A program made the position numbers and the translations under genes. This document shows, piece by piece, positions 1,689 to 60,176 of a stretch of 64,000 bases of DNA. Origin of the DNA: a virus. Lineage: Duplodnaviria > Caudoviricetes. Where the stretch lies: IMG/VR virus record IMGVR_UViG_3300021256_000099, positions 4,236 through 68,235 of that record. One strand, 5' to 3'. The first letter of the stretch is position 1. Every line of letters starts with the position of its first letter. Below the pieces are notes generated by a model. The model saw only the letters and a list, made by a program, of their open reading frames with translations, was not told the DNA's origin and ran no database searches.

Positions 1689-2828
1689 ATGGGAAAACTT
1701 CACTGTCCAGTATTTTCGTCCGGGTGGGGAGATATGGAAATCCTTGAGTCGGACGGAAAATTCCTAATCATCGACACCTTTACAAACGGCAATTCAAAGC
1801 CAAGGAAGTATGTCAAAAACCTACTCAACGGAAGGAAGAGTGACCTTCTCTTCTCCCACGGTCATCAGGATCACAATGACGATGCTGAATGGTACATAAA
1901 AAACAACTTGATAAAACATCTTTATGTCAGTATGCACCAACCGGGTCAGGAAACGCATAAAGATAGGACGAGACAAAATAATATTATTTCACTTTGTAAG
2001 AGCAAAGGTATCCCTGTTACCCAATTAGGGACTGGGGATACTTTTAGTGTTGGTAAAGCAACCGTAAAAGTTCTATACGCAAAATCAACCGGGGGGAATA
2101 ATGCTAAGTCGCTTTGTCTCATGGTCACTCTCAATGGGGTTAAAATCCTTCTTTGCGGAGATGCAGAAACATCCACCGTAAAAGCAATGGTCAACAAGTA
2201 CTCTATATCATGTGATATAGTAAAGTTCAATCACCACGGGGTCAAAGAGAATAACCCTTCCATCTTTGCTGAAAAAGCGAAAGCGAGTTATGCGTTCTGC
2301 AATTGTTGTGATGAAGGCTCATCCACCTTTAGGAGTTGGGCAAAAGAATCCTACGCAAAATTTGAAGCGCAGAATACTAACTGTGTTTCAGTCCTGTACA
2401 ATGGTGGAATTGTCTTCGACTGCTATGCCGGGGAATTCAACGTCTTGATGGGAAGGAACTATAAAACCGCCATTAGTAAGATTAAGCGTGACGGATTTGT
2501 TGTCGAAAAGCAGTTCCATTATTGCGACAAAGAGCCTTTACACATTGCCAAGTCGATGGAGTATATCGACTTACAACTTGCTAAAGATACCATCTGCGGA
2601 CGATTCGGCAACGGATCAGAGCGCACAGAGAAATTGAAGAGCAAAGCTGCTACCGTCCAGAAACTTGTCAACGGTCTTATCGGCGAATTTGCTGACAGGA
2701 TGATTGCCGGGGAAGGAGGAAACGGTGAGGCAAACAGAACAGCTTGGCTGAGAAAATGCGGTTTCGTTTATGATCCCGCTGTTGCATACTCTGTCATTCA
2801 GAGCGAAGTGAATAGAAGAACGAAATAA
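1689..2828 (+). CDS. ComEC/Rec2-type metallo-beta-lactamase hydrolase with C-terminal CW_7-like cell-wall-binding repeats
   Basis: HGHQDH (HxHxDH), LLCGDA and KFNHHG motifs; C-terminal GRFGNGSER and GEGGNGEANR repeats. Confidence 0.8.
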   Translation: MGKLHCPVFSSGWGDMEILESDGKFLIIDTFTNGNSKPRKYVKNLLNGRKSDLLFSHGHQDHNDDAEWYIKNNLIKHLYVSMHQPGQETHKDRTRQNNIISLCKSKGIPVTQLGTGDTFSVGKATVKVLYAKSTGGNNAKSLCLMVTLNGVKILLCGDAETSTVKAMVNKYSISCDIVKFNHHGVKENNPSIFAEKAKASYAFCNCCDEGSSTFRSWAKESYAKFEAQNTNCVSVLYNGGIVFDCYAGEFNVLMGRNYKTAISKIKRDGFVVEKQFHYCDKEPLHIAKSMEYIDLQLAKDTICGRFGNGSERTEKLKSKAATVQKLVNGLIGEFADRMIAGEGGNGEANRTAWLRKCGFVYDPAVAYSVIQSEVNRRTK

Positions 2829-2833
2829 CTTTC

Positions 2834-2870
2834 AAGGGGTGTCCCAGTAACTTGGGATGCCCCTTTTATT
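2834..2870 (+). terminator. Intrinsic terminator
   Basis: AAGGGGTGTCCCAG/TTGGGATGCCCCTT hairpin then TTTT. Confidence 0.8.
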
Positions 2871-2919
2871 GTCCTATAATATAAGTAACTATCATTTTAT
2901 ATATAAAGGAGACTTAAAA

Positions 2920-5103
2920 TTGCCAGATGTATATCAAAGAGTCATCAAACGTGATGGCAAGGAAGTCGCATTCGACCCGTCAAAGATTGAAAACGCTATC
3001 AGGAAATCCAATGCAGAGGTAGACCCGGTACATCAGCTTTCGGACGCTCAGATTGAGGCTGTGGTTGACATGTTGACCGAGCAGATTAACGACATCCAAC
3101 ATGCTGTCAATGTGGAAGACATCCAAGACATGGTCGAAAAGGGAATCATGTCCGTACGGGGTTACGAAGTTGCCCAGAAGTATGTCCGCTACCGCTATAA
3201 GAGAGAACTTGCGAGAAGAGCGAATACAACAGACCAGAACATCCTGTCGCTCATCAATCTGAGCAACGAGGAAATCAAGCAGGAAAATTCCAATAAGAAC
3301 CCTGTCATCAATTCTACTCAGCGTGACTACATAGCAGGAGAAACCAGTAAGGACTTGACTGCTCGTGTTCTCATCCCGAAAGAAATCTGGGACGCTCATG
3401 AACAGGGCATTATCCATTTCCACGATGCCGATTATTTCCTTCAGAGCGAACATAATTGCGATTTAATCGCACTCGATGACATGCTCCAGAACGGTACTGT
3501 CATCAGCGGGACTCTTATCGAAAAGCCTCACAGCTTTTATACGGCTTGTAATGTAACGACCCAGATCATCGCACAAGTAGCATCCAACCAGTATGGCGGG
3601 CAGTCTTTCTCTCTGGCACATCTTGCCCCGTTCGTACAGGTGAGTAGAGACAAGATCCGTCAGGAAGTCATCAATGAGCGTGAGCAGTGCGCTGAGAAAC
3701 TTGACAGGGATATCATTGACCAGATTGTAAAGATCCGCCTCAAAAAAGAAATCACTGCGGGTATCCAGACTATCCAGTATCAGTTGATTACCCTGATGAC
3801 ATGTAACGGGCAAGCACCGTTTGTTACGATGTGGATGTACCTTGATGAAGTCCCGGAAGGCAGAATCAGGGATGACCTTGCCATGCTTATCGAGGAAGTC
3901 CTTAATCAGAGAGTCCAAGGAACAAAAAATGAACAGGGTATCTGGGTAACCCCTGCTTTCCCGAAACTCATTTATGCCCTTGACGAGGACAACATCCGCC
4001 CCGGAACAAAGTATTGGGATCTGACCGTTCTGGCCGCAAAGTGTACAGCCAAGAGAATGGTTCCTGACTACATCTCCGTCAAGAAGATGAAAGAGTACAA
4101 GAACGGTGATGTATATCCGTGTATGGGATGTCGTTCATTTTTGACACCAGATACCGTTGGCTTAAACCCTGATGGAAGTCATAAGTATTACGGAAGATTT
4201 AACTGTGGTGTCGTAACTATCAACCTTGTTGATGTAGCATGTTCTTCCTACGGCGATATGGATAAGTTCTGGGAAATCCTTGAAGACAGACTGGAACTCT
4301 GCCACCGGGCATTGCAATGTAAGCATGAACGTCTTAGAGGCACTGTATCGGACGTTGCTCCTATCCTTTGGCAACATGGTGCGCTTGCACGGTTAAAGAA
4401 GGGCGAGAAGATTGACAAACTTCTTTATGGAAACTATTCCACAATCTCTCTTGGTTATGCCGGGATCTATGAGATGTGTGTCAGAATGACAGGAAAGTCG
4501 CACACCTCTGAAGAAGGCAAAAAGTTTGCTCTGGCCGTCATGCAGAAACTCAATGACAAATGTGCCGAGTGGAGAGCTGCAGAAAACATCAGCTACTCCG
4601 TTTATGGCACTCCTATGGAGACAACGACTTACAAGTTTGCCAAGTGTCTCCAGAAGCGATTCGGTATCATCAAGGATGTGACGGATCACAACTACATTAC
4701 CAACTCGTATCACATCTCTGTCAGGGAAGAAATTGATGCCTACAGCAAGTTGAAGTTTGAATCGGAATTCCAGAAGTTGTCTCCCGGTGGAGCAATAAGT
4801 TATGTTGAAGTTCCAAACCTTCAGAACAACATCCCTGCCGTCATCAGTGTCATGCAGTTCATCTACGATAACATCATGTATGCTGAACTCAACACCAAGA
4901 GTGACTACTGCTCCGTCTGCGGTTTTGACGGAGAAATCCAGATCGTTGATGACCACGGCAAACTTGTTTGGGAATGCCCCAACTGCGGTAACCGTGACGA
5001 GTCAAAGATGTCAGTAACAAGACGCACATGTGGTTACCTTGGCAGTCAGTACTGGAATCAAGGAAGGACTGCTGAGATCCGGGACAGAGTCCTGCATCTG
5101 TAA
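2920..5103 (+). CDS. nrdD: Anaerobic (class III) ribonucleoside-triphosphate reductase with N-terminal ATP cone
   Basis: TTG start after AAGGAG; ATP cone VIKRDG..V.FD..KI..AI; CMGCRSFL, NCGVVTINL, TPMETT; Zn site CSVC..CPNC; glycyl radical motif RRTCGYL. Confidence 0.95.
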   Translation: MPDVYQRVIKRDGKEVAFDPSKIENAIRKSNAEVDPVHQLSDAQIEAVVDMLTEQINDIQHAVNVEDIQDMVEKGIMSVRGYEVAQKYVRYRYKRELARRANTTDQNILSLINLSNEEIKQENSNKNPVINSTQRDYIAGETSKDLTARVLIPKEIWDAHEQGIIHFHDADYFLQSEHNCDLIALDDMLQNGTVISGTLIEKPHSFYTACNVTTQIIAQVASNQYGGQSFSLAHLAPFVQVSRDKIRQEVINEREQCAEKLDRDIIDQIVKIRLKKEITAGIQTIQYQLITLMTCNGQAPFVTMWMYLDEVPEGRIRDDLAMLIEEVLNQRVQGTKNEQGIWVTPAFPKLIYALDEDNIRPGTKYWDLTVLAAKCTAKRMVPDYISVKKMKEYKNGDVYPCMGCRSFLTPDTVGLNPDGSHKYYGRFNCGVVTINLVDVACSSYGDMDKFWEILEDRLELCHRALQCKHERLRGTVSDVAPILWQHGALARLKKGEKIDKLLYGNYSTISLGYAGIYEMCVRMTGKSHTSEEGKKFALAVMQKLNDKCAEWRAAENISYSVYGTPMETTTYKFAKCLQKRFGIIKDVTDHNYITNSYHISVREEIDAYSKLKFESEFQKLSPGGAISYVEVPNLQNNIPAVISVMQFIYDNIMYAELNTKSDYCSVCGFDGEIQIVDDHGKLVWECPNCGNRDESKMSVTRRTCGYLGSQYWNQGRTAEIRDRVLHL

Positions 5104-20788: not shown

Positions 20789-21433
20789 ATGAAAGTCCTT
20801 GAGTTATTTGCCGGGACAAGAAGTATTAGTAAAGCCTTCGAGAGAAGAGGACATGAGGTCTATACCGTAGATTGGGACAAAGACTTCGAAAACATAGACC
20901 TTTGTAAAGATATTAGTAAACTTACAGCGCAGGAGATATTAGAGAATTTTGGACACCCGGATGTGATTTGGGCAAGTCCAGACTGCTCATCTTACTCCGT
21001 GGCCGCAATCTATCATCATAGGAGAAGAGACAAGACAAACGGGTCACTCGAACCAATAACCGAATATGCGAGGTTTTGTGATGAGACGAATCAGCATGTC
21101 TTAGAGCTAATAAAAGAACTCAATCCGAAGTTCTATTTCATAGAAAACCCAAGGGGGGGTCTGAGAAAAATGTGGTGGATGCAGGATTTGCCGAGATACA
21201 CAGTGACGTACTGTAAATATGGCGAGACCCGTATGAAACCCACGGACATTTGGACGAATCACCCAGACCCTAAGTTTATTCCGCCTTGCAAGAATGGAGA
21301 TCCGTGCCACGAGAAAGCACCAAGGGGAACAAAGTGTGGAACTCAGAAGATTAAAGGCTCAAAGAACAGGGCGAAAATCCCAGTTCTTCTGTGTGAACAT
21401 ATTGTAGATATTTGTGAGGAATATATAGATTGA
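20789..21433 (+). CDS. Short phage C5 cytosine DNA methyltransferase
   Basis: Motif I LELFAG, motif IV WASPDC, motif VI FIENP, KPTDIW. Confidence 0.85.
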   Translation: MKVLELFAGTRSISKAFERRGHEVYTVDWDKDFENIDLCKDISKLTAQEILENFGHPDVIWASPDCSSYSVAAIYHHRRRDKTNGSLEPITEYARFCDETNQHVLELIKELNPKFYFIENPRGGLRKMWWMQDLPRYTVTYCKYGETRMKPTDIWTNHPDPKFIPPCKNGDPCHEKAPRGTKCGTQKIKGSKNRAKIPVLLCEHIVDICEEYID

Positions 21434-21730: not shown

Positions 21731-22565
21731 CTTTTATAGATTTTTTTGCCGGGATATAGGGGGTTTCCGTCTTGGCATGGAAAGAGCGGGGCATGAGTGT
21801 GTCGGGTTCTGTGAATTCGACAAGTACGCCGTCATGGCTTATACAGCTATGCACTTGTGTACAAAGGAACAGATTGATTATTTATCAAGTCTCCCACCCA
21901 GAAAACGGCAGAAGGAAATTTTAAAGGAAGAGTATCGAAATGGAGAGTGGTTCAGAGAAGATGTCAGGAATATCAGGGCAGACGAAATCCCAAGAGCAGA
22001 CTGTTGGTGCTTTGGATTCCCGTGTCAAAACATCAGTGTTGCCAGAGCAGAGAGCAGACAAGGACTTAGCGGAGAAAAATCAATCCTCTTCTATGAAATC
22101 ATCAGATTGCTCAAGGACACAAAAAAAGACGATAGACCCAGTTATTTGCTCATTGAGAACGTTAAGGGATTGCTTGGTGTCAACCGGGGATGGGATTTTG
22201 CCAGAGTCCTCAGTGAACTGGATGGAGTCGGGTATGATGCGGAATGGCAGATTCTTGACTCAAAATATTTCGTCCCACAACACCGGGAAAGAATCTTCAT
22301 TGTTGGACATCTTAGAGGAAGACACACCTCAAAGGTATTACCTATCGAAGGAGCAAATGGAAAAGATTGCGCTAACCAAATAAAACAAGTAGGCCATCTA
22401 GCAGTGTCTCTTCGCCATAATCCTGACAGGTACAGAGTTTATGATCCGACAGGTATTTGCCCTACTCTCAACAAAATGGAAGGTGGCGGGAGAGAACCAC
22501 ACATAGTCGTGGGGGTGGCTGCTCTTCGTGGTAAGGGAAAGATTGGAAGTGACAGCGATGAATGA
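21718..22565 (+). pseudogene. C5 cytosine methyltransferase, motifs I-VIII, with a 2-bp frameshift in motif I
   Basis: MGRLTFIDFFAGI then TAG; removing TA at 21757-21758 restores FAGIGGFRLGMERAG into ORF 21777 (FGFPCQ, ENVKG, QHRERIF). Confidence 0.75.
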
Positions 22566-22803
22566 TGGCAGATATTTTAAGATTTCAGATGACCTTGTTG
22601 TTTATGCAGTCTGGCATCCTGTAAGGCAGCACTGGGTCACTATAAGAAAACTCACCCCAAGGGAATGTTATCGTCTGCAAACGTTCCCAGATGACTATTT
22701 CGACCGGGCAAGTCTGCTGTGTAGCGATCATCAGCTTTATAAACAGTCTGGAAATAGTGTTACGGTAGATGCCGTTGAGGCACTGGCGAGAAAAATGGCA
22801 TGA
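22558..22803 (+). CDS. C5 methyltransferase C-terminal part (motifs IX-X) as a separate ORF
   Basis: RKLTPRECYRLQTFPD and QLYKQSGNSVTV; ATG overlaps the upstream stop. Confidence 0.75.
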   Translation: MNDGRYFKISDDLVVYAVWHPVRQHWVTIRKLTPRECYRLQTFPDDYFDRASLLCSDHQLYKQSGNSVTVDAVEALARKMA

Positions 22804-23064: not shown

Positions 23065-23583
23065 ATGAACTACCAAAAGCTAAAAAAAGTATCAATTGAG
23101 AATGGGGACGGTGTCCGAGTGAGTCTATTTGTCTCAGGCTGCAGAAGACACTGCCCAAAATGCCACAATCCAGAGGCGTGGGATTTTAACTCTGGAGAAA
23201 AATTTACAAGGCGAGTCATGATGATGACTTTGTATGAGTGTGAAAAAGATGGGATCTCTGGTCTGTCAATCCTTGGTGGAGAACCGTTAGAAAAAGAAAA
23301 CGTCAGGGATGTAGCACTCCTCATCCGGGCGTTTCGTGGTCGGTTCGGTAACTCAAAGACTATCTGGCTTTACACTGGGTTCAATTTCGAAAGTCTCAGC
23401 ACGTACAGAAGGATATCCACAAAAGAAGATGCTTACTGGGTGGGTGTTATCTTGGACAACATCGATGTTCTGGTTGACGGTGAATACGTTGATGAGTTGA
23501 GAGTTCCGCCCGGATCTCAGTTTTATGGCTCTTCTAACCAGAGAATCCTTCACTTGATGGACGGTGAAATCATTGATGCATGA
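23065..23583 (+). CDS. nrdG: Anaerobic RNR activating protein (radical SAM)
   Basis: NGDGVRVSLFVSGC, CRRHCPKC, GLSILGGEP, IWLYTG, DVLVDG, GSSNQR. Confidence 0.93.
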   Translation: MNYQKLKKVSIENGDGVRVSLFVSGCRRHCPKCHNPEAWDFNSGEKFTRRVMMMTLYECEKDGISGLSILGGEPLEKENVRDVALLIRAFRGRFGNSKTIWLYTGFNFESLSTYRRISTKEDAYWVGVILDNIDVLVDGEYVDELRVPPGSQFYGSSNQRILHLMDGEIIDA

Positions 23584-23825
23584 TTCGGCAAAACAATGTG
23601 TCTGGATTTGAAGAAGGCGGTTATAGCGAGACCGAGTGGGCATTGATACTGGCTAATGAGGATGGTCTGTCGATGGAAGAGACGGAAGAAAGAACAGGGA
23701 TAACCCTAAAGCAGATAAAAAAAGTATCAGCGTACCTTGGTCTGGATTGGGGTATCCGCAACGTGAACAAAAGGAGATTTGTTAAAGAGTGGAAAGAGGT
23801 TACGAAACTTTTAGGAAGGCTATAG
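23580..23825 (+). CDS. Small HTH-like hypothetical protein
   Basis: Coupled ORF; LSMEETEERTGITLKQIKKV. Confidence 0.5.
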   Translation: MIRQNNVSGFEEGGYSETEWALILANEDGLSMEETEERTGITLKQIKKVSAYLGLDWGIRNVNKRRFVKEWKEVTKLLGRL

Positions 23826-24391
23826 CTGCCGGGGTGTTTATCGGGATGGGGTGCATTGCATACATGAGTTGCGGAAACAAGGTAATTGGTGCGTTCCTGT
23901 TTGCTATAGGTCTATGTTCTGTTGTTATATTCGGCAGTAAGCTGCTTACCGGGGCATTATGCACAAGCGATGACTGGGGTGAACTTGGCTTGATTAACCT
24001 TGGCAACTATGTTGGCATCTTTGTAATGGCTTTATTAGCAAGAGCCTCTGGAATCATAGGCGAAATCGATATGTCTGCAAGGGTAGGAAGACCGTTTTAC
24101 GAGAACATCCTGCGTGGAATTATCTGCGAGATTTGCATCTACATCGCAGTAATGGGACACAAAAAGGGTCGCAAACTATTGATTGTGGTTCTGGGAGTTA
24201 TGACATTTATCTTATGTGGATCAGAACACTGCGTCGCAGATTTTTTCTACATCCTTATGTCATCGTCAGGCGGGGTCTGGTACAAAGAGATTCTGTTTGT
24301 ACTTCTCGTGACAGTCGGCAATATAATTGGAGCTGCCTTTATGCGGTGGTTAGATCCTTATGATGATTATTACCTTACATTCGAGTTTTAA
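23789..24391 (+). CDS. Formate/nitrite transporter (FNT/FocA family)
   Basis: AIAAGVFIGMG, GAFLFAIGL, KLLTG, GNYVG, FILCGSEHCVAD, TVGNIIG; about six hydrophobic helices. Confidence 0.82.
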   Translation: MERGYETFRKAIAAGVFIGMGCIAYMSCGNKVIGAFLFAIGLCSVVIFGSKLLTGALCTSDDWGELGLINLGNYVGIFVMALLARASGIIGEIDMSARVGRPFYENILRGIICEICIYIAVMGHKKGRKLLIVVLGVMTFILCGSEHCVADFFYILMSSSGGVWYKEILFVLLVTVGNIIGAAFMRWLDPYDDYYLTFEF

Positions 24392-31342: not shown

Positions 31343-31409
31343 CAAGATTTTTGCAAATTGCCTGTGATGTGCTATGATAGGTATGTCACAGGCTCTTTTA
31401 GAGGATAAA

Positions 31410-32609
31410 ATGGGAAAGGACAGAAAAGGAAGAGAATTAGGCGAAGGACTAAGACAACGAGTAAACGGAAAGTATGAGGCAAGGTTCGTAGACAGGTTTG
31501 GAAAACGGATCAGCATCTACGGCGATACATTGCAGGATGTCAGGAAGAAGAGACTCCAAGCGTTGGCTGTAGATTTTTCCAGAAAAGCCATCCGGGAAGA
31601 GATGACACTCGACCAATGGTATTACAGGTGGTTAGAAGTGTACAAAAGACATTCTTTGAGACAGGACTCACTCTGCTATTATAAGAACGTCTACGAGAAG
31701 AATATCGAGGTGGAACTGGGCAATGTGAAGTTGACAGACATCACCAAGTCGATGATCCAAGATGTCATCAAGAAAGCACATGACAAAGGATATGGGTACG
31801 AGCGTCAGAACAAGATACGAATCATGCTATCTGACATGTTCGACCGTGCGATAGAGGATGACTTGCTGTTGAAGAACCCGGCAAAGGGTGTCAGGACGAT
31901 ATCGAAGAAGAGCGTGGCTGCGGAATTTTTGACGCAAGAGGAGCAGAGAGAATTTTGCATAGCTTGCTCTGGGACTTTCTACGAAAATGCCTTCATGACT
32001 CAGCTTAACACAGGTCTGCGTCCGGGCGAGCTGTACGGACTCAAAGAGGAAGACATCGATTTTGATGGCGGGATCATCAGGGTGAGGCGGACACTTGTCT
32101 ACCAGAAGTATGAGGAAGACACCGGGAAGACATTTCACGAGGAAGAACCCAAAACGCCTCAGTCAATCAGGGATGTGCCGATGAACAGCGAGTGCAGGAA
32201 ATTTTTGCAGAGACAGGTGTGCCAGAAAAGGGTTGTCGCATCCAATAACCCTGACAGGACTTGCCATTATCTTTTTGTGACCGGGCGGAATTCACCGCTA
32301 AATGCGTCCATCTACAACGATGCTATAAAACGGATCGTCACTGACATGAATGCGATGAGGATCAAAGAGGAACAGTTGCCATATTTTTCAGCGCATTGCT
32401 TTAGACATACCTTCGCTACCAGATGCTTTGAGGCGGGAGTCGATGCAAAAGTAGTCCAGAAATTTTTAGGACACGCATCAATCAAGATGACGATGGATCT
32501 CTATACTCACGTTGTGCAGGATAAGATGCTTGACTCGATAGAGATGATTGTGCCGGGAGACTGCGGTTTCGACTCAGTCGAAATTGACTGGAGTGCTGTG
32601 GGGTATTGA
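31410..32609 (+). CDS. int: Tyrosine integrase (Tn916-like N-terminal DNA-binding domain)
   Basis: GKDRKGRELGEGLRQR..GKYEARF; TGLRPGE, PKT, HCFRHTFATR, LGHASIKMTMDLYTH. Confidence 0.92.
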   Translation: MGKDRKGRELGEGLRQRVNGKYEARFVDRFGKRISIYGDTLQDVRKKRLQALAVDFSRKAIREEMTLDQWYYRWLEVYKRHSLRQDSLCYYKNVYEKNIEVELGNVKLTDITKSMIQDVIKKAHDKGYGYERQNKIRIMLSDMFDRAIEDDLLLKNPAKGVRTISKKSVAAEFLTQEEQREFCIACSGTFYENAFMTQLNTGLRPGELYGLKEEDIDFDGGIIRVRRTLVYQKYEEDTGKTFHEEEPKTPQSIRDVPMNSECRKFLQRQVCQKRVVASNNPDRTCHYLFVTGRNSPLNASIYNDAIKRIVTDMNAMRIKEEQLPYFSAHCFRHTFATRCFEAGVDAKVVQKFLGHASIKMTMDLYTHVVQDKMLDSIEMIVPGDCGFDSVEIDWSAVGY

Positions 32610-39918: not shown

Positions 39919-40943
39919 CCCGGGGACACATTGTACCGTTTACGTCCAGTGTGCATGTTATATAACAGATAGAACAACTGGCTCAAAAATAAGATCAGCC
40001 AAAACTGTTATACGTGGTATATAACACGCATATCAAGGCCTGGACCTAAAGTTAATTGTTTCAATTGTGCATAAAATATATACAATAGGCACAATAATAA
40101 CAGGACGCAAATTAATCAAATTGTGTATAAAAAATATACAACTCAAACAATTCTTGAATGTGGCCGCCGCCGCCAAATTGTCAGACAATAAACAAAATAA
40201 ACAGAAAATTAGCACTTCACATTTTAGAGTGCTAATTTACAGAAAATAATGTGAATTGTCAGATAAATTGTTTCGTGCTCTAACGCAATACAAATTAACA
40301 GACAATACGGATAATTATCAGATAATAGGAAACGGATCTATTTTTATAGTTTGTTGTGTCTAACATATGTGGGACAAAATTAGTACATTTCTACCGCCAG
40401 GGAATTTGTTCGAATTATCAGAAAACTATACACAATTTATACGGATCGCATTTTTGTTTAAAAGTATGTCATACTGCCGATTTTTATGCATTTTAACCCT
40501 GTCTTTTTGCATAAAAACTGTATAAAACATGAAAACATGTATAAAACATGTATAAAGTGCCGAAAAGAAGACGGAAAAATGAATAATCTGACAATATAGC
40601 GAATTGTATAGCTCCAACAGAAATCAAGGCTTTTATGACATGGGCGGGGGGATATACCACAAACGCAAAAAGTCGCTTAAATCGCCAAATAAACGATTTT
40701 ATGGATATATCGAAAAGATGATATAAAATAATCAAAATACGGTACATTATAATTGTACAAATAGGAACGAATACTATATTATGGCTGCCGATACAAAAAA
40801 AGATATAAAATGAATCTAGCAATATTTGGCTATACAATGTACTAATATAGTGATACAATAGTATTAGATACATATATAAGTTTTGTATCTGTTAGGTGAT
40901 ACTAACGGATGCGATACAATTTTATGGAAAGGTGGATTATAAA

Positions 40944-41810
40944 ATGAATAAGGCAACAGTTACGAGAAAACAGAATATTGCAACTAAGTTGGCGAATGCA
41001 ATCAACAGCGGGAACTATAAAGAAATCCCGAACATTGTTAATAAGGCAACCTTATTTGCTATCATTGACGCGCTCAAGTCAGACGCTGTTGACGGCGATA
41101 TGAACGCGATTCCAATTCTTTTTGACATGGCATTAACAATTAGAAAGAACATCGGCCGCCCTTTTACCATGTCAGAATGTAAAGAATATTATGGTTTGAG
41201 TTTTACACTTAACCATAATGGCAAAATGTCTGGGATGGTAAGTATTAGCACTGATAACAAGTTGAATCCTTACTGTTGTGCTTACAAGTGCAATCCTGAT
41301 AACATCTGTTATAACTGTTTTGCCGATGGACAGTTAGACAGGCAACCTTCACAAGAAATCCCATATATTTACAACACGCTCCTGTTGACACATTATATTA
41401 TCCCTGTAGAGTTATTGCCAATTATCAATAATCTGTATTTTAGGTTTGAATCGTTTGGGGATCTGATTAACAGTGTACAGTTTACAAACTATTGTAACAT
41501 CTGTTTAGCTAATCCGATGGTACACTTTTCGGATTATACTAAAAACCTTTTTATCATTGATAATACATTTCGCAGTGGCGTCAAAAAACCCGGCAATCTT
41601 AAAATCGTAGCAAGTAGCATTAAAAAGAACATTGTGCGACAGTTAACAGAATATCAAAAGACATATGTTAATCATGTCTTTACTGTTTACACTGTTGAGT
41701 ATCTTAAATCCCATGATATAAAGATTAACTGCGGTGCCCGGCACTGTTTGAGCTGCTTAAACTGCTATATTGATGATACAGATTTTTATATCAATGAAAT
41801 TGAAAAGTAA
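40944..41810 (+). CDS. Gp88-like Cys-rich phage protein
   Basis: HNGKM.G..SIST...N.YC, ICYNCFA, FRFESFGDL, YTKN, NCGARHCLSCLNCY; low GC. Confidence 0.55.
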   Translation: MNKATVTRKQNIATKLANAINSGNYKEIPNIVNKATLFAIIDALKSDAVDGDMNAIPILFDMALTIRKNIGRPFTMSECKEYYGLSFTLNHNGKMSGMVSISTDNKLNPYCCAYKCNPDNICYNCFADGQLDRQPSQEIPYIYNTLLLTHYIIPVELLPIINNLYFRFESFGDLINSVQFTNYCNICLANPMVHFSDYTKNLFIIDNTFRSGVKKPGNLKIVASSIKKNIVRQLTEYQKTYVNHVFTVYTVEYLKSHDIKINCGARHCLSCLNCYIDDTDFYINEIEK

Positions 41811-41821
41811 ATCAGGGAAAC

Positions 41822-41860
41822 AAAAACCCGGCGGTGGATCTGTCGCCGGGTTCATTTTTT
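41822..41860 (+). terminator. Intrinsic terminator
   Basis: AACCCGGCGG/TCGCCGGGTT hairpin then TTTTTT. Confidence 0.75.
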
Positions 41861-42253
41861 GTGAAGTGATTGTACGCAATTGAATTGCGCACAATCAAAA
41901 AACATGATCATGAAAAAGTGCACAAAAGAGCGACCTTGAATTTGTATAAATTGCTGGACACGAAAATGACGGCCACATAGCAAAGTGCACAAAAATCAGA
42001 CCCTCAATTTGGTGAAAATTGGTCATACAAATTTTGAGTCCAGGCCCTGATATGTATGGGCAAAACAACCAAAACAGGGGCGGCAAAATTGTGCAAGTTG
42101 CCGGACACATTTACTTTTCGGATCTCTCAAAAGTCGCTAGTATATGTATATGTACATATAGCGAACATATAGTAAATGTTAGTTGACACCTGTGGTACAA
42201 TTAGAGTAGGAAAGAAGACGATTGAAGAGGCTTTTTGAGTCATTGAAACATGC

Positions 42254-42850
42254 ATGGATATCGACAGTAACACAATCGAAAGCGCAATAAAAGCATATTA
42301 CAGAGACCGCTATAGTATAGAGGACGACAGTGCACTATATGAGTATATAGAAAACAGTAAACAATCAATCTTTAATGCATCATTAACCTATGCCAATACA
42401 TTCATTGGCTTAAATGCTAAACTGAAAAACAAGTTTGACGGCATTAACGCATACACCATAAACTCATACAATTATGATAAATGTATGAGTATTGCATATG
42501 TGTATATCAATCTATGTGATAAATATAGTAAAGTATCTAATGTGCACGGTTATAGCAAGTTAACAGGGATTGAGTCGCATACTCTAAATGAATGGGCAAA
42601 TGATAGAAAGGTAAGTAACAGCTACAAACAAATAATAAAAATTATATCATGTAGTAATGAAAGCATGTTATCCGATTTGTTGTTAGAATCACGCAACAAC
42701 ATAGGCGTTATAGCTGTACTTAACCATAACTATAACTGGGCAAATAGTACAGTGATACATGAACATCGATTGACAATGAATAGTGACAAACAAGCATTAC
42801 AAACGAAATATAGCCAATATCTAACTGACAATACAGACAATAAAGACTGA
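42254..42850 (+). CDS. Putative terminase small subunit
   Basis: Position near terL; GYSKLTGI...LNEW HTH-like segment, NIGVIAVLNHNYNW ending; low GC. Confidence 0.45.
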   Translation: MDIDSNTIESAIKAYYRDRYSIEDDSALYEYIENSKQSIFNASLTYANTFIGLNAKLKNKFDGINAYTINSYNYDKCMSIAYVYINLCDKYSKVSNVHGYSKLTGIESHTLNEWANDRKVSNSYKQIIKIISCSNESMLSDLLLESRNNIGVIAVLNHNYNWANSTVIHEHRLTMNSDKQALQTKYSQYLTDNTDNKD

Positions 42851-43248
42851 TTTGTATGGTATTATTCATAATATCAGACAGCGTAAACCATTATGCAGAC
42901 AGTACTTGCCCTCTAAACATCGATGCTTTTATGTTTGGTTGAATGTTGTAGTATGGTATACCCCTATGGTATGGACTCAAAAAAACCGCCAATAACCCCT
43001 TTAAATACCGACAAAAACAAAAGGCTCTAAATACACTCAAAGACAAAGGGCTATATAACAACGACAAAGGGCATAAACATAGACAAGATTGAAGTATCTC
43101 ACCTGATGGATCAGTCTATGAAGGTCACTTGTCTGCTAAGTCAAAGATGATATATATGGCCGTCTATTCTCAAAAATCGCCAAAAATAAAAAAGGCCATC
43201 CTTGAAGGACAGCCAATAACTGGACGCTGCATGATTGAAGAACAGAGG

Positions 43249-43455
43249 TTACTCGTCTGAAGGATCATCGTCTAAATCTTTGATGACGAACGAGCAGTTC
43301 ATGAATTCCAGAACCTGTACGAACTCCTCAACCGTCCAAGTATCTCTGGTCAACTTGTTTCTCCACGTTTGATGCTTGATACCAAGTCTATCTGCAAGAT
43401 ACTGACCTTTATAACCTTTAGCCTTCATGATCTGCTTGATGACTTCAGATCCCAT
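43249..43455 (-). CDS. Small XRE-like HTH protein
   Basis: IKQIMKAKGYKGQYLADRLGIKHQTWRNKL; divergent from the recombinase. Confidence 0.7.
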   Translation of the reverse strand: MGSEVIKQIMKAKGYKGQYLADRLGIKHQTWRNKLTRDTWTVEEFVQVLEFMNCSFVIKDLDDDPSDE

Positions 43456-43531
43456 ATTTGATATCTCCTTTACTGATGCCTGATTGATGTATCGATAATA
43501 TAATAAACCATCAATAAACCTTTTGCAAACA

Positions 43532-43560
43532 TTGAAAATGTATCAAAAATATGGTACAAT
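43532..43560 (+). promoter_or_regulatory. sigmaA-type promoter of the serine recombinase
   Basis: TTGAAA-17 nt-TACAAT with extended TG. Confidence 0.7.
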
Positions 43561-43598
43561 ATCCTCATAAGAGGTTGTGTTTGTGAAAGGAGTTTGAC

Positions 43599-44393
43599 AT
43601 GGCATATTACGCATATTACCGGGTATCCACCCAGTCTCAGGTTGAAGCTAACGGCACTCAGATGCAGATTGATGTCATCAGGAAGTACTGCACTGATAAC
43701 GGCATTGAGATAGCTGCTGAATACTCGGATGAAGGTATATCCGGGGCAATAGATGATGTTGATGAGGATGCTATCCATAAGCGCAAAGGTTTGATGTCTC
43801 TTCTGGCTGTTCTGAAGGATGGTGACTCGATTATCGTCCAGAACACTTCAAGGCTCTGGAGATCAGACACTGCAAAGGTCATCGTTCGCCGTGAAATCAA
43901 GAAGGCTCATGCCAACATCAAGTCTGTCGAGCAACCGACATATGATATCTACAAGAAGAATCCCAATGACTTTCTCTTCAATGCCATCATGGAAATCTTT
44001 GATGAGTATGATAAGCTGACTATCGCAATGAAGTTGGCGAAAGGCAGAGATGCTAAAGCGAGGAAGGGAGAAAAGTCCTGTGGAAATACCCCGCTCGGCT
44101 ACAGGTGGACGGTCGATGCCAAGATTGAGATTGACTACAACAATCACCTGATCGTCAAACAGATATTTGACAAGTACATCGAGACTGGCTCGTATGCTGC
44201 TGTACAGAGGTTCTGTGATGCTAATAATATCAAGACCAGAAAAGGCAACAGCTTTACCAGACAAGGGATAAAAGACATCATCACCAATGACTTCTATATC
44301 GGGATCGTCACACATGCCGGGGAGAAGGTCAAAGGTGACCATCCTGTATTTATCGATGAAGAGACTTTCATGAAGGCGAACCATAAAAAGTAA
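43599..44393 (+). CDS. Serine recombinase (resolvase domain plus recombinase domain)
   Basis: YAYYRVSTQSQ, DEGISG, RKGL..LL, SRLWR, GNTPLGY, ITNDFYIG. Confidence 0.9.
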   Translation: MAYYAYYRVSTQSQVEANGTQMQIDVIRKYCTDNGIEIAAEYSDEGISGAIDDVDEDAIHKRKGLMSLLAVLKDGDSIIVQNTSRLWRSDTAKVIVRREIKKAHANIKSVEQPTYDIYKKNPNDFLFNAIMEIFDEYDKLTIAMKLAKGRDAKARKGEKSCGNTPLGYRWTVDAKIEIDYNNHLIVKQIFDKYIETGSYAAVQRFCDANNIKTRKGNSFTRQGIKDIITNDFYIGIVTHAGEKVKGDHPVFIDEETFMKANHKK

Positions 44394-45891: not shown

Positions 45892-45964
45892 GGCGGGAGA
45901 GTGAAACGGATTACACATCGGGTTCATGCCCCGAAAACATCGGGTTCGACTCCCGTTCCCGCAA
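45892..45964 (+). tRNA. tRNA-Met(CAU), initiator-like
   Basis: Cloverleaf; anticodon stem TCGGG/CCCGA with three G-C pairs, 1:72 mismatch, TTCGACT T loop. Confidence 0.75.
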
Positions 45965-46257: not shown

Positions 46258-46413
46258 GGACACCCACAGCAACACATACACAAAACATAGAACAAGTTAG
46301 AACCTTAAAAAGCCGAACGTCCTTTCCAGACTCAGCTATTTGGTGTCCTGTTTTCGTTTATGTGACTCTAACAGCAAATACTTGGTAGACAGCTTATTAC
46401 TAAACGAGTCATG
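46258..46413 (+). ncRNA. Two tandem stem-ACAGCAA-loop-stem-TG elements
   Basis: GGACAC-CCACAGCAA...GTGTCC-TG (46258-46350) and GACTC-TAACAGCAA...GAGTC-ATG (46364-46413). Confidence 0.55.
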
Positions 46414-46428
46414 AGAAAGAAGGTGTTA

Positions 46429-47895
46429 ATGAACTTTGCGACAGCACTGGACGAAGCGTCCAAGGTTACTCGCACGGAAAACGGTGCGTTAGCCTACAAC
46501 ACAACTGATGATGCTTTATTAGACCTCTACTCCACAATAGGAGCATTGAGGAGCGCAGATGATGCGAGAATCGAGCGTCTGTTTGACTGCGCTTACAAAG
46601 CTGATCCGCTTTTTGCCACAAAGATTGTTTTCTACGGAAGAGACATCCGTGGTGGCCTTGGAGAGAGAAAGACCTTTAGAGTTCTCCTTAAGTACATGGC
46701 GGACAACCATCCTTCGGCAATCAAGCCAAACATGCACCTCGTCCCGGAATACGGCAGATGGGATGATATGTACTCCTTTATCGGGACTCCGCTTGAGGAC
46801 GATATGTGGAGACTGATGAACGAGCAGCTTGAGAAGGACTGTTTTGCTCTTGCTGATGGAAAGAACGTTTCCCTTCTGGCAAAGTGGATAAAGACCCCGG
46901 ATGCCTCTTCAAAAGAGACCAGAAGGCTCGGCATCCTTACTGCCAAAAAACTCGGTTACACTGTGTATCACTTCAAACGGATCATCCGTGCGCTTAGAAG
47001 GCAAATCAATGTAACAGAGTCGCTGATGTCGGCCAAGAAGTGGAATGAGATAAAGTACGAGGAAGTACCGTCAAGGGCATCCACACTCTACAGAAATGCT
47101 TTTTCGAGGCATGACGGAGACAGATACCGGGAATTTGCCACTAAAGCGGTAAATGGCGAGGCGAAAATCAATTCGTCAACCCTTTACCCCTATGACATCA
47201 TTCAGCGGTACACTTCTTATGGTTGGGGTCTGCAGGTAAAACCATTGGACTACATACTTGAGGCACAGTGGGAGCAACTTCCTGACTATGTCGAAAAAGG
47301 CTCTAATGCCATTGTGATCGCTGATACATCAGGGTCTATGCACGGAAGACCAATCAACTCAGCAATAGGTCTTGCTATCTACTTTGCTGAGAGAAATACC
47401 GGGGCATACCACAACCTCTGGATGTCTTTCTCCAGAACGTCTACAATCCACAAACTAAAAGGGGATACCCTTCGGCAGAAAATCAACTCTATTGACTTTT
47501 CTGACTGGGAGAACGATACGAACATTGAAGCTGCCTTTGATGGAATCCTCGATATTGCCATCAAGAATAACGTTCCTGCTGACGAGATGCCCAAAGCACT
47601 GGTCATCATATCTGACATGGAATTCAACCAGTGTACATACGGTTTCATGTACGACAGCATGGCAAAGAAGTTTGCAGCACATGGATACGAACTGCCAAAT
47701 GTTGTCTTCTGGAATGTTGACTCCCGGAATGATACCTACCATGTCCGTTCTGGGCAGAAGGGTGTACAGTTAGTCTCTGGATCATCAACTTCAGCCTTTA
47801 AGAACCTTATGGACTGCGTAGACATGACCCCAGTAGAAGCAATGGTGAAAACCATTAACTGCGACAGGTATCTGCCGATAACCATTGAGGAATAG
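46429..47895 (+). CDS. DUF2828-family protein (TROVE/Ro60-like plus vWA domain)
   Basis: RTENGA, LLDLY, FYGRDIRGGLGER, VPEYGRWDD, LLAKW, YEEVPSRA; vWA MIDAS-like DTSGSM, ISDMEF, FWNV, VSG. Confidence 0.85.
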   Translation: MNFATALDEASKVTRTENGALAYNTTDDALLDLYSTIGALRSADDARIERLFDCAYKADPLFATKIVFYGRDIRGGLGERKTFRVLLKYMADNHPSAIKPNMHLVPEYGRWDDMYSFIGTPLEDDMWRLMNEQLEKDCFALADGKNVSLLAKWIKTPDASSKETRRLGILTAKKLGYTVYHFKRIIRALRRQINVTESLMSAKKWNEIKYEEVPSRASTLYRNAFSRHDGDRYREFATKAVNGEAKINSSTLYPYDIIQRYTSYGWGLQVKPLDYILEAQWEQLPDYVEKGSNAIVIADTSGSMHGRPINSAIGLAIYFAERNTGAYHNLWMSFSRTSTIHKLKGDTLRQKINSIDFSDWENDTNIEAAFDGILDIAIKNNVPADEMPKALVIISDMEFNQCTYGFMYDSMAKKFAAHGYELPNVVFWNVDSRNDTYHVRSGQKGVQLVSGSSTSAFKNLMDCVDMTPVEAMVKTINCDRYLPITIEE

Positions 47896-47992
47896 GGACA
47901 ACCCTTTTTCTATATATTTCATATTTGTTATTCTCCTTTCAGCGAACGGCATCTGGTGAGAACCGGGTGCTGTTTTGCTTTTAGATAGATTT

Positions 47993-48064
47993 TGCCCCTT
48001 CGCCAAGCGGTAAGGCACAGGACTTTGACTCCTGTATGCACTGGTTCGAATCCAGTAGGGGCAG
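47993..48064 (+). tRNA. tRNA-Gln(UUG)
   Basis: TGCCCCT/AGGGGCA acceptor, CAGGA-CTTTGAC-TCCTG anticodon arm, GTTCGAATC T loop. Confidence 0.9.
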
Positions 48065-48081
48065 TTAGGAAGGTGTTATAG

Positions 48082-48607: not shown

Positions 48608-51346
48608 GTGCTTTTTATTTGCATGCCAAGACCTAAACCATTCCCGAATGATGAGCCAGAGTATATGAAGATTGCTGATGCCATCGATGCCAAGATATGT
48701 GCGGAAGGTGTCTCTCTGGAACTTGTAAAGGATCTGTTTGACTGCTGTATCCATGAGTCCCAGAACAGGCGAGGATTTGACCATGATTTCTGGTTTGATA
48801 AAACAGCAAGAGTAAAAAAGTACTGCGTCCAAATGATGGGGGATGCAGCTCTGGCAGAAGAAGCGGAGAACATCTTTGAGTCAACACTGTTACTTGAAGC
48901 ACCGTATCTTTTCGAAAGTTATCTCCTGTACCTTGAAAAAGACAGAGAAGACTCGGAGAAGTTTTACGAGCCTAAAATCAAGCAGTTCAAGAAGTTCGGC
49001 ATCATACAGGCATTGCAGGATCTCGAGGATGATAAACTTGATTTCCTGACAATTTCAATGCCACCCGGAACTCAGAAATGTCAACCACTGTATTCCAAGG
49101 TACTTACACCTGACGGGTTCGTGCGGATGGGAGACATCAAGATAGGCTCAAAAGTAATATCTGGCACTGGAAAAGTAGCCACGGTAATTTCTCAGTCAGA
49201 GGTCAAAAAGCGTCCAATCTATGAAGTGACGTTTGATGACGGTTCTAAGGTGAGATGTTCCGACAACCATATCTGGCATGTCCAGACAAGGTACGACAGG
49301 GAAGTAGGCAAATACAGGGACGTAGAACTAAAAGACATGATAGGTCAACTGTATGTCGAAAACGGAAGGCGGAAGAATTACTCCATTGATTACGTTCCAA
49401 AGATTGATTTCCATAAAAAGGATTTTCTGCTTCATCCGTATGTCGTTGGCACTCTGATAGGTGACGGCGGACTGAGCCAAGGATATGCGATGCTGTCATC
49501 GAATGATTATGAGATGGTTCAATTCGTCTCAGAACTGTTGCCAGACGGATATTGCCTCAAGCATCACGATAGATGCACGTATAGTGTAAATGGAAAAACT
49601 GGAAAGGCAAGCGTTGTCCATCAAGAACTTGACAGATTAGGTCTTCTCTGGAAGAAGAGCGTGGATAAGTTCATTCCAAAGGAATACCTGTACGCAAGTT
49701 ACGAACAACGGTTGTGGCTGCTGAGAGGACTGCTCGACACTGATGGATCTGCCAGTAAGGGATATGCTTCGTTTTCTACGGTTTCAGAGCGGTTGGCGAA
49801 AGATGTAGCAGAACTTGTCCATTCTCTTGGCGGATATGCGTCCTGTAAGAAGAGCAAGGCAGGATACAGGGACAAGAATGGCAATTACAAGAAATGTCAT
49901 GATGTTTACAACCTGATCATCCAATTCGATAGCCAAATGGATGATATCTTCTGGCTTGAGCGGAAGAAAAAGGTGTATAAGCCAAAGAGAAAGTCCATAA
50001 AAAGGTTTATTTCTAAGGTCGAATATATCGGGGAAGAAGACTGCAAGTGTATCCTGATAGATGACCCTTCTCATCTTTATATCACTGATGACTACATCAT
50101 CACGCACAATACGACCTGTGAAAAATTCTTTGCTTCATGGATCATTGGAAGGCATCCAAAAGACTATAGCCTGTTCTTTTCCCACTCATCTGACATCACA
50201 GACATGTTCTACCGGGGTGTTCTTGATATAACAACTTCGCCAGAATATAATTGGCGGGAGATATTCCCGGATGTGAGGTTCCTTGGTTCAAATGCCAAGA
50301 AACAGACAATCATGTTCAACAATTATAAGCCTTTCGCTAACCTTCAATGCACATCAAGAGGTTCGAGCAATGCGGGTGTTGTACGATGCAACCGTTACCT
50401 GTATGTCGATGACTTGATTGCAGGAATACAAGAGGCACTTAACAAGTCGTTTCTGGATAAGCTGTGGAACATCTACTCTGTCGATGCGAGGCAAAGGAAA
50501 CTTAATGAACAGGTAAAAGAAATCCACATTGCCACAAGATGGAGTACCGTGGATGTGATCGGTCGGCTGCAGAACCTCTATGGTGACAGTGACAGGGCAA
50601 GGTTTATCTCTATCCCAGACATCGACCCTGTCACTGGAGAGTCGAACTTCGACTACAAGTACAACGGAATGTCCACAGAGTTCTTCAACAGTCAGGCAAT
50701 GGCAATGGATGAGATATCCTACAAGTGCCTGTATAAGAACGAACCCATCGAGCGTGAAGGTCTGCTCTACCACGAGGATGAACTAAGACGATTTGCTGAT
50801 ATTCCGGGGACAGAGCCAGACGCTATCATTGCGGTATGCGATACCAAGTCTACAGGTATAGACTACATGTTTATGCCCGTCTTTTACCAATACGGCACTG
50901 ACTTTTATCTGGTCGATTGTATCTGTGACAACAGCACAGACTTCAACCGTCAGTACTCAAGACTTACCGACATGATTCTTAAACACAATATCCAACAATG
51001 CGAATTCGAGTCAAACGCCGGGGGTGATAGAATCGCCTTTGAGGTAAATACGAGAGTACAGGCTGTAGGTGGAAGATGCAATATAACATCTAAAGCTACA
51101 GAGACTAATAAAGAAACGAGGATCATTGTTAACTCGGACTGGGTTAAGCAACACTGCCTCTTTAAGATAAAGGAATTGTACACAAGAAGGGATGACTACG
51201 GTGCTATGATGTCCTTCCTTCTCAGCTATTCTATTGCAGGAAAAAATCTAAATGACGATGTCCCTGATGGCCTTGCAAACTTCTCTCTGTATATCGCAAG
51301 AAAAGAGAGAATAAAACCGACACAAATATTTAGGTCTCCCATTTAA
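48608..51346 (+). CDS. terL: Terminase large subunit containing an intein
   Basis: ISMPPGTQK|T Walker A split by the intein; LYVDDLI Walker B, IATRWS, AVCDTK, CEFESN, NDDVPD nuclease motifs. Confidence 0.9.
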   Translation: MLFICMPRPKPFPNDEPEYMKIADAIDAKICAEGVSLELVKDLFDCCIHESQNRRGFDHDFWFDKTARVKKYCVQMMGDAALAEEAENIFESTLLLEAPYLFESYLLYLEKDREDSEKFYEPKIKQFKKFGIIQALQDLEDDKLDFLTISMPPGTQKCQPLYSKVLTPDGFVRMGDIKIGSKVISGTGKVATVISQSEVKKRPIYEVTFDDGSKVRCSDNHIWHVQTRYDREVGKYRDVELKDMIGQLYVENGRRKNYSIDYVPKIDFHKKDFLLHPYVVGTLIGDGGLSQGYAMLSSNDYEMVQFVSELLPDGYCLKHHDRCTYSVNGKTGKASVVHQELDRLGLLWKKSVDKFIPKEYLYASYEQRLWLLRGLLDTDGSASKGYASFSTVSERLAKDVAELVHSLGGYASCKKSKAGYRDKNGNYKKCHDVYNLIIQFDSQMDDIFWLERKKKVYKPKRKSIKRFISKVEYIGEEDCKCILIDDPSHLYITDDYIITHNTTCEKFFASWIIGRHPKDYSLFFSHSSDITDMFYRGVLDITTSPEYNWREIFPDVRFLGSNAKKQTIMFNNYKPFANLQCTSRGSSNAGVVRCNRYLYVDDLIAGIQEALNKSFLDKLWNIYSVDARQRKLNEQVKEIHIATRWSTVDVIGRLQNLYGDSDRARFISIPDIDPVTGESNFDYKYNGMSTEFFNSQAMAMDEISYKCLYKNEPIEREGLLYHEDELRRFADIPGTEPDAIIAVCDTKSTGIDYMFMPVFYQYGTDFYLVDCICDNSTDFNRQYSRLTDMILKHNIQQCEFESNAGGDRIAFEVNTRVQAVGGRCNITSKATETNKETRIIVNSDWVKQHCLFKIKELYTRRDDYGAMMSFLLSYSIAGKNLNDDVPDGLANFSLYIARKERIKPTQIFRSPI
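49079..50110 (+). mobile_element. Intein (344 aa) with LAGLIDADG homing endonuclease
   Basis: Starts CQPLYSKVLTPDG, ends DDYIITHN before Thr; GTLIGDG and LLRGLLDTDG motifs. Confidence 0.92.
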
Positions 51347-59772: not shown

Positions 59773-60176
59773 AGAGTCCAAGTGATTATCCATCATACCA
59801 TGCCTATGTCTTGGATCAGATGTTGCCAAAAGCCGTTGTATTTGGCTTTGGATACAGGGAACTGATGGATATGACTCCTGCCGTTGTACGAGGTTATGCA
59901 AAAGGCTTTGAGTTAAAGAGTGACCTGATTGATGATTACTCTTACAATCTTGGCAAATACTTTTATGTTGGCTTAATGACTGCGCTTGGAAGCGTACTGG
60001 ACAAAAACGGTAAGCACGATTATCCCGATAAACCGTTCCATGAGATAACGTCTGGTACGACAGTCGAAATCGAATTAAGTGAAGAAGAAATCATCGAACA
60101 GACAAACAGGCTCTTTGCAAACCTCAACATTATGAAGTCAAACTTTGAAAGGAGCAATCCTAAAAGTGGCAACTAA
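59700..60176 (+). CDS. Tail assembly chaperone extension (gpT-like), reached by -1 frameshift
   Basis: The -1 frame is open from the slippery site through DYPSYHAYVLDQMLPK to the stop at 60176. Confidence 0.7.
   Translation, partial: FSDPFSEDGDSGRTAEEKGNKESVKSPSDYPSYHAYVLDQMLPKAVVFGFGYRELMDMTPAVVRGYAKGFELKSDLIDDYSYNLGKYFYVGLMTALGSVLDKNGKHDYPDKPFHEITSGTTVEIELSEEEIIEQTNRLFANLNIMKSNFERSNPKSGN

Follow-up and report, generated by a model that had tools for sequence, protein, structure and literature searches.

Why would a phage carry a gene for a membrane channel from the family of formate/nitrite transporters (FNT) among its genes for nucleotide metabolism? This question is raised by a 68-kb IMG/VR virus record (IMGVR_UViG_3300021256_000099), of which positions 4,236 to 68,235 were analysed as one stretch of 64,000 nucleotides, hereafter the window. 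In the window, nrdG (23065..23583, + strand), which encodes the 172-residue radical-SAM activase of the class III ribonucleotide reductase (RNR) NrdD, is followed by an open reading frame (ORF) of 81 residues, termed orf81 (23580..23825, +), and by the gene of a 200-residue putative formate channel, termed mini-FNT (23789..24391, +). The reductase is encoded at 2857..5103 (+, 748 residues). We propose that the mini-FNT is probably a working channel that supplies formate to this NrdD1-type reductase, a reading that rests on its family assignment, the reductase type and the gene linkage. The preliminary description of the locus had placed nrdG at position 23065 with an FNT gene two genes later, and nrdD at 2920; all three genes are present, position 2920 being an internal start in the same frame of the nrdD ORF. 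NrdG was identified by TIGR02491 (141.3 bits against a cut-off of 126.1) and PF13353 (131 bits), and its translation carries the radical-SAM cluster motif CxxxCxxC in the form C-RRH-C-PK-C.

For the product of the third gene, PF01226 (Form_Nir_trans) gave 76.3 bits, its cut-off being 34.6, and the match took in positions 20-233 of the profile's 240. A family profile (A1) made of 19 short FNTs, with the window protein as the first sequence, retrieved among the solved structures Vibrio cholerae FocA (PDB 3KLY) at 1e-24, followed by HSC, NirC, LciA, Escherichia coli FocA and PfFNT. An AlphaFold2 model computed from an alignment of 68 mini-FNT sequences reached a pLDDT of 92.8 and a pTM of 0.88, with helices predicted at residues 2-27, 31-48 plus 53-56, 63-87, 103-127, 130-142 plus 148-157, and 164-188. 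The predicted structure shows the aquaporin-like protomer of six transmembrane (TM) helices, in which TM2 is broken by an omega loop and TM5 by an S loop. Structural similarity search using Foldseek gave TM-scores of 0.76-0.84 to FocA, HSC and NirC. Taken together, the PF01226 score, the match to 3KLY, the confident model and the Foldseek scores make a chance assignment untenable, and on this profile and modelling evidence the 200-residue protein belongs to the FNT channel family and, within it, to a compact subfamily, the mini-FNTs.

Compared to FocA (reference proteins from E. coli, Salmonella and V. cholerae; TCDB 1.A.16; PDB 3KCU, 3KLY, 3Q7K and 9G49), the mini-FNT has the same fold (TM-scores of 0.76-0.83) but is much shorter, with 200 residues against 285. 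As the preliminary description had noted, the N-terminal extension is missing: the alignment begins near FocA residue 30, so that the N-terminal cytoplasmic domain of about 30 residues has no counterpart. TM2b, the stretch from the central Thr to TM3, has about 8 residues compared to about 21 in FocA, and the loops are shortened too. In a passage of PMC12559229 that cites Kammel 2021, the N-terminal domain of FocA is described as contacting PflB and gating translocation, and the mini-FNT lacks this gate domain; no pflB gene was found near the FNT gene. The protein also falls short of the FocA equivalog models, with 43.1 bits against 290.1 for TIGR04060 and 21.8 against 440 for PRK10805.

The short form is shared by a whole subfamily. 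A profile search of 1.84 billion representatives returned 1178 clusters at 50% identity with E <= 1e-30, and nearly all of the best 150 of these 1178 clusters contain proteins of 190-225 residues, which argues that the short form is not a truncation. Domain fusions such as NrdG-FNT were sought among the longer members, but none was found and their extensions hold no Pfam domain. Among viral resources, PHROGs has no family for the mini-FNT, BFVD has one good viral match, machine-named "Formate/nitrite transporter", and the ESM Atlas has an all-viral cluster of 92 FNTs of 187 residues. No publication on a phage FNT, a phage formate channel or an nrdDG-FNT cassette came up in full-text literature searches; already known are the FNT family, class III RNR and, as a precedent, focA-pflB.

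To compare the pores, the nine pore residues of PMC9380403 and the constriction residues were mapped onto E. coli FocA for the 68 mini-FNTs. The central Thr and His, T54 (FocA T91) and H147 (FocA H209), are invariant in 68 of 68 members, as are the residues of the hydrophobic constrictions, namely F38 (FocA F75), L42 (FocA L79), L52 (FocA L89) and F140 (FocA F202). E146 (FocA E208) and N178 (FocA N262) are nearly invariant. At the sequence level, the pore core is therefore kept, with eight FocA pore-core positions invariant or nearly so. The basic vestibule residue K156 of FocA corresponds to R98, a position that is Arg or Lys throughout and Lys in most members. The signature following the central Glu-His differs, reading EHC..D compared to EHS..N in FocA: C148 is a natural variant at FocA S210, and D151, at FocA N213, is Asp in the clade of the window protein and in most members, and Asn in the rest. 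An N213D exchange in FocA is functional (PMC9380403).

The reductase that the channel would serve was classified by the subtype definitions of PMC4493059 and PMC12662201. Its domains are PF13597 (630 bits), the glycyl-radical domain PF01228 and an N-terminal ATP-cone (PF03477). The nearest solved relatives are Streptococcus thermophilus StNrdD (9d3x, 1e-133) and T4 NrdD (1h78, 1e-104), compared to 5e-8 for the Thermotoga maritima type. StNrdD is a formate-dependent NrdD1 (PMC12662201), and the subtypes NrdD2 and NrdD3 are defined by extra active-site Cys residues (PMC4493059). N198-C199 of the window protein, equivalent to N78-C79 of T4, are conserved; the finger loop M423-G424-C425 (...CMGCRSF...) is identical to that of T4; and the radical Gly in RTCGY is kept. 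N449 occupies the site of T4 N311, which we take to be the location of the second redox Cys in class I, and being Asn it provides no third Cys there. Judging by these residues, the window NrdD is of the T4/S. thermophilus formate-dependent type, NrdD1; the thioredoxin-dependent type, against which the preliminary description had asked the reductase to be checked, is not indicated. Every FNT-linked phage NrdD with high-scoring segment pairs over these sites likewise has the T4-type active-site residues. Formate is the reductant of NrdD, and NrdD1 oxidises one formate per nucleotide reduced, according to a statement in PMC13689563 that cites Mulliez 1995. Thus the window NrdD and NrdG are clear members of the group of T4 NrdD/NrdG and StNrdD, with the same active-site residues, but differ in their setting: the T4 and cellular systems use host-made formate and have no channel gene in the operon.

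Several peculiarities of the nrdD genes were observed in passing. Directly after N449, the window protein has C450 (window 4204-4206), where T4 and S. thermophilus have Leu; the residue after this Asn is mostly Ile or Val in the other FNT-linked phage NrdDs, and Cys only in L033. In the sister contig L175, whose nrdD is 97% identical, a 915-bp insertion (2380-3294) interrupts the finger-loop codons M423-G424-C425 at the point corresponding to window 4127/4129. The insertion is broken by in-frame stops and includes an ORF bearing a GIY-YIG-like motif, so that it resembles an intron that carries a homing endonuclease, although an Rfam search of it found no group I intron. Interruptions of nrdD in this region also occur in L002/3/36, L017, L020 and L024; in L002/3/36 both nrdD halves lie in one open frame of 1037 residues, which looks like an intein.

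A scan of IMG/VR with the subfamily alignment, by pattern plus tblastn, yielded 37 phage loci. The records that bear them contain nrdD in 28 of 37 cases and a class I/II RNR large subunit in none (0/37). At 25 of the 37 loci, no more than about 3.5 kb separates the FNT gene from nrdD and/or nrdG, and at 21 of these 25 the flanking gene is less than 700 bp away on the same strand. Four gene orders occur: nrdD-nrdG-FNT (L001, L014-16, L020, L024, L026 and L034), nrdD-FNT-nrdG (L002/3/36, L006, L017-19, L027, L029 and L031/32), FNT-nrdD-nrdG (L005) and nrdG-x-FNT (L013 and the window). After near-identical contigs were collapsed, 20 of 28 lineages were linked, L166 and the window counted. By comparison, of 80 loci at which bacteria carry this subfamily, 38 of them with at least 3 kb on both sides, one had nrdD within 6 kb; a Fisher test of 20/28 phage lineages against 1/80 bacterial loci gave 2e-14, with relatedness ignored. 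The carrier genomes measure 36-380 kb and use three genetic codes, and the linkage holds at FNT divergence down to about 30% identity. In those phages that have the channel, it mostly accompanies the class III RNR genes. The co-occurrence that the preliminary description had proposed to measure is thus borne out (28/37 with nrdD, 0/37 with a class I/II RNR, 25/37 nrd-linked against 1/80 in bacteria). As the pairing recurs in many phages and not in bacteria, the phage channel most likely imports formate. The window follows this pattern less tightly, since its nrdD is distant.

Two features of individual cassettes deserve mention. An in-frame TAG (L012, L029 and L030) or TGA (L018, L019 and L027) occurs inside both FNT and nrdD at conserved positions, and the TGA aligns with Trp in the recoded phages, which carry the same cassette. 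In L013, a 64.6-kb genome with terminal repeats (rated 100% complete), the segment 8752-11178 comprises nrdG, two unknown ORFs, a mini-FNT gene and thyX. No nrdD was detectable there with the Pfam model, and this phage appears to have the activase and the channel without a reductase of its own.

The bacterial members are among the closest comparisons for the phage protein. They are of about 190-225 residues, have the same invariant residues and are 31-43% identical to the window protein, but unlike it they stand alone: when the neighbours of the 80 bacterial loci were clustered in search of a conserved partner gene, none recurred in more than four loci. In GTDB, more than 565 species have the subfamily, mainly rumen and gut Clostridia and Fibrobacter. 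The bacterial proteins go by no other annotation than "formate/nitrite transporter family protein". In four sampled bacterial genomes, the mini-FNT gene is the only FNT gene; nrdD lies elsewhere in 4/4 and a true pyruvate formate-lyase (PFL) is encoded in 3/4. Since it is the sole FNT in these genomes and three of them have PFL, a role of the subfamily as the formate channel of these formate-producing bacteria fits the data.

In the window, nrdG, orf81 and the mini-FNT gene all lie on the + strand, in a dense run of co-directional genes for replication, modification and nucleotide metabolism. orf81 shares 4 nt with nrdG and 37 nt with the FNT gene, the latter starting with GTG 12 nt downstream of AAGGAG, and neither a terminator nor a convincing promoter was found between nrdG and the FNT gene. 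A metagenome scan for sister contigs obtained two, L199 and L200, and both retain nrdG-orf81-FNT under purifying selection. The ratio of non-synonymous to synonymous substitution rates (dN/dS) is 0.28 and 0.21 for the mini-FNT against the two sister contigs, 0.125 for nrdG against L199, and 0-0.07 for orf81, whose identity is 100% in L199 and 91.5% in L200. orf81 has no family in Pfam, NCBIfam or PHROG, the ESM Atlas gave weak leads only, and the ORF is absent at the other phage nrd-FNT loci. A holin or lysis role of the mini-FNT was considered and set aside, as the gene stands in the replication and nucleotide block, far from the lysin genes at 1689-2828 and 60145-61494.

These observations are consistent with the following model. 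The mini-FNT would be expressed together with nrdG in the replication and nucleotide-metabolism block, insert into the host membrane and form a pore during infection. FocA is a bidirectional channel for formate/formic acid (PMC13689563), and the phage pore may similarly admit formate or formic acid, or equilibrate either across the membrane, entry being favoured by an acidic exterior. With the FocA N-terminal gate lost and TM2b shortened, the channel would be independent of host control through PflB. It could thereby provide more reductant to the phage NrdD1, which oxidises formate to CO2 with every deoxyribonucleoside triphosphate (dNTP) made, and keep the reductase running at times of steeply rising dNTP demand or scant formate production by the host. 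We infer formate as the substrate, and a net inward flux, from genomics. The arrangement resembles focA-pflB-pflA of E. coli in that a channel gene is linked to a formate-involving glycyl-radical enzyme, here nrdD/nrdG; however, the partner of FocA produces formate, whereas the partner of the mini-FNT consumes it. The proposal of the preliminary description that the phage controls the formate supply for anaerobic dNTP synthesis is thus supported by the NrdD1 type and the nrd linkage, although its "complete module" needs qualification: nrdD, nrdG and FNT are all present, but they are not contiguous. Its remark that a membrane channel is unusual as a helper of nucleotide metabolism is tempered by a phage precedent, the PnuC-type nicotinamide mononucleotide transporters (in BFVD, Lactococcus phage AM4 and Enterococcus phage vB_EfaM_A2), which likewise import a precursor for a phage pathway but have an unrelated fold and substrate and serve NAD salvage, not ribonucleotide reduction.

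Several points weigh against this formate-supply reading, beginning with the pore itself. At the position of FocA N172, where a conserved Asn partners T91 and is required for translocation, the mini-FNT lacks this Asn and has E114; Glu is found in 10/10 of the window clade, whereas the other mini-FNTs, the bacterial ones included, have Asn, Gly or Asp. Translocation by FocA is lost with N172T and reduced with N172A, and Gly was the sole natural variant at this position in the set studied (PMC9380403). The atypical E114, together with the loss of 85 residues relative to FocA, the missing N-terminal helix, the shortened loops and the contraction of TM2b from about 21 to about 8 residues, could indicate a degenerate or non-conducting FNT remnant. 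This appears very improbable, however, as the gene is under purifying selection (dN/dS of 0.21-0.28), the subfamily of 1178 clusters shares the length of about 190-225 residues and an invariant pore core, and the confident model has six TM helices with both broken helices present.

A further point against formate supply is that the substrate of an FNT is not readable from its sequence; relatives carry nitrite, hydrosulfide, lactate or bicarbonate. C. difficile HSC (3TDO), NirC (4FC4), PfFNT (7MXY) and LciA (9V2A), proteins of about 250-310 residues that transport hydrosulfide, nitrite, lactate and bicarbonate, respectively, share the pore architecture and fit the model as well as FocA does (TM-scores of 0.76-0.84). 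In addition, in 8 of the 28 phage lineages the FNT gene has no nrd gene nearby and adjoins an integrase, amidase or terminase; five of these eight have no nrdD in the record, including two whose records are rated 100% complete, the G011 provirus and G037. The mini-FNT might accordingly be a general pore for weak acids or anions (formate, acetate, lactate, nitrite or hydrosulfide) that tunes the fermentation balance or cytoplasmic pH of the host, for example by letting fermentation acids out and thereby keeping up glycolysis and the supply of ATP, and that has no specific tie to NrdD. Isolated FNTs do translocate several anions (PMC9380403), and the missing FocA-specific N-terminal domain and the 43 bits against the equivalog cut-off of 290 also agree with such a pore. 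Yet it would leave unexplained both the adjacency to nrdD-nrdG in 20/28 lineages and four orders, when the bacterial genes have no conserved neighbour, and the absence of class I/II RNR from all 37 records, and we regard it as unlikely. The sulfite and nitrite reductase operon partners of other FNTs are absent at the mini-FNT locus. At the unlinked phage loci, a search for another metabolic partner yielded only integrase, amidase, resolvase, terminase, portal and a HAD domain.

The history of the gene also bears on the reading. Among 50 phage records chosen for the closest NrdD relatives, just one had any FNT gene, located directly after nrdD, so that the channel is a dispensable, optional accessory. 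The phage FNTs are long-branched, and the tree hints at several lineages, with L002/3/36 inside a bacterial clade; in an approximately unbiased (AU) test, however, a single phage FNT clade was not rejected (p = 0.31). Independent acquisition by several phage lineages is therefore not claimed, and some of the linkage may reflect inheritance and not renewed selection. In the window, moreover, nrdD lies about 18 kb upstream of nrdG-orf81-FNT, so the module is non-contiguous. In another reading, the gene would be a moron or lysogenic-conversion cargo taken from a Clostridia host, which benefits the lysogen through formate exchange, or hitch-hikes in an inherited cassette, with no tie to the reductase. 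The phage is temperate, as judged from a tyrosine integrase (31374-32609) and a serine recombinase/invertase (43599-44393); many gut and rumen bacteria have the subfamily; the FNT gene of L022 adjoins an integrase; and the single clade allowed by the AU test also agrees with cargo. On the other hand, the window gene stands in the co-directional replication and nucleotide block and not at an integration end, it overlaps the upstream ORF with no terminator or strong promoter from nrdG onwards, and the nrd linkage persists to about 30% FNT identity across genomes of 36-380 kb and three genetic codes. Such a cargo role seems to us quite improbable.

Returning to the formate-supply reading, it is an even question whether mini-FNTs make up a previously undescribed class of phage auxiliary gene, a "reductant importer", by which a phage with its own ungated formate pore, NrdD1 and NrdG frees its anaerobic dNTP synthesis from the host formate economy. 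If so, one virus would encode both an enzyme and the membrane route for the co-substrate of that enzyme, bypassing PFL activity, FocA gating and formate hydrogenlyase of the host, and replication would be possible in hosts or states that make little formate. Phage replication would then be tied to the extracellular formate pool of the gut and rumen, which is shared with methanogens and acetogens, linking phage productivity to a key interspecies electron carrier of these habitats. The concept of auxiliary metabolic genes would be widened from enzymes to substrate supply for anoxic nucleotide synthesis. Furthermore, the reading offers a testable function for a large uncharacterised subfamily of gut and rumen bacteria and phages, and a minimal FNT of about 190-200 residues without a gating domain may serve as a model for the transport mechanism.

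The window of this gut or rumen phage otherwise has a terminase, portal, major head protein, tape measure and endolysins besides the tyrosine integrase and the serine recombinase. No class I/II RNR was found in the record. A CW_7 repeat of an endolysin suggests a Gram-positive host; a search of 399 Clostridia genomes with the major head protein gave distant prophage matches only, at no more than 48% identity.

A few further features of the window were recorded. Upstream of nrdG, a C5 cytosine DNA methyltransferase (21777-22803) is divided between two ORFs that overlap and differ in frame, the first (21777-22565) corresponding to profile positions 44-169 and the second (22528-22803) to positions 268-322; it could represent a frameshift, a pseudogene or an insertion scar, and the alignment of L199 is interrupted there as well. 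Positions 20789-21433 hold a third methylase-like ORF. A low-GC island at 40001-44000 (0.34-0.38 compared to about 0.45 elsewhere) contains an unassigned ORF of 304 residues and, lying beside the serine recombinase, may be a separately acquired element. The large terminase ORF (48608-51346) is unusually long, with 912 residues; terminase profiles match two consecutive blocks (about 147-503 and 502-900), with extra P-loop matches near the N-terminus, and a fusion or insertion may be present. Just upstream of the terminase, a DUF2828/DUF7788 (VWA-like) protein (46411-47895) is encoded between tRNA-Met(CAT) (45893-45963) and tRNA-Gln(TTG) (47992-48065).

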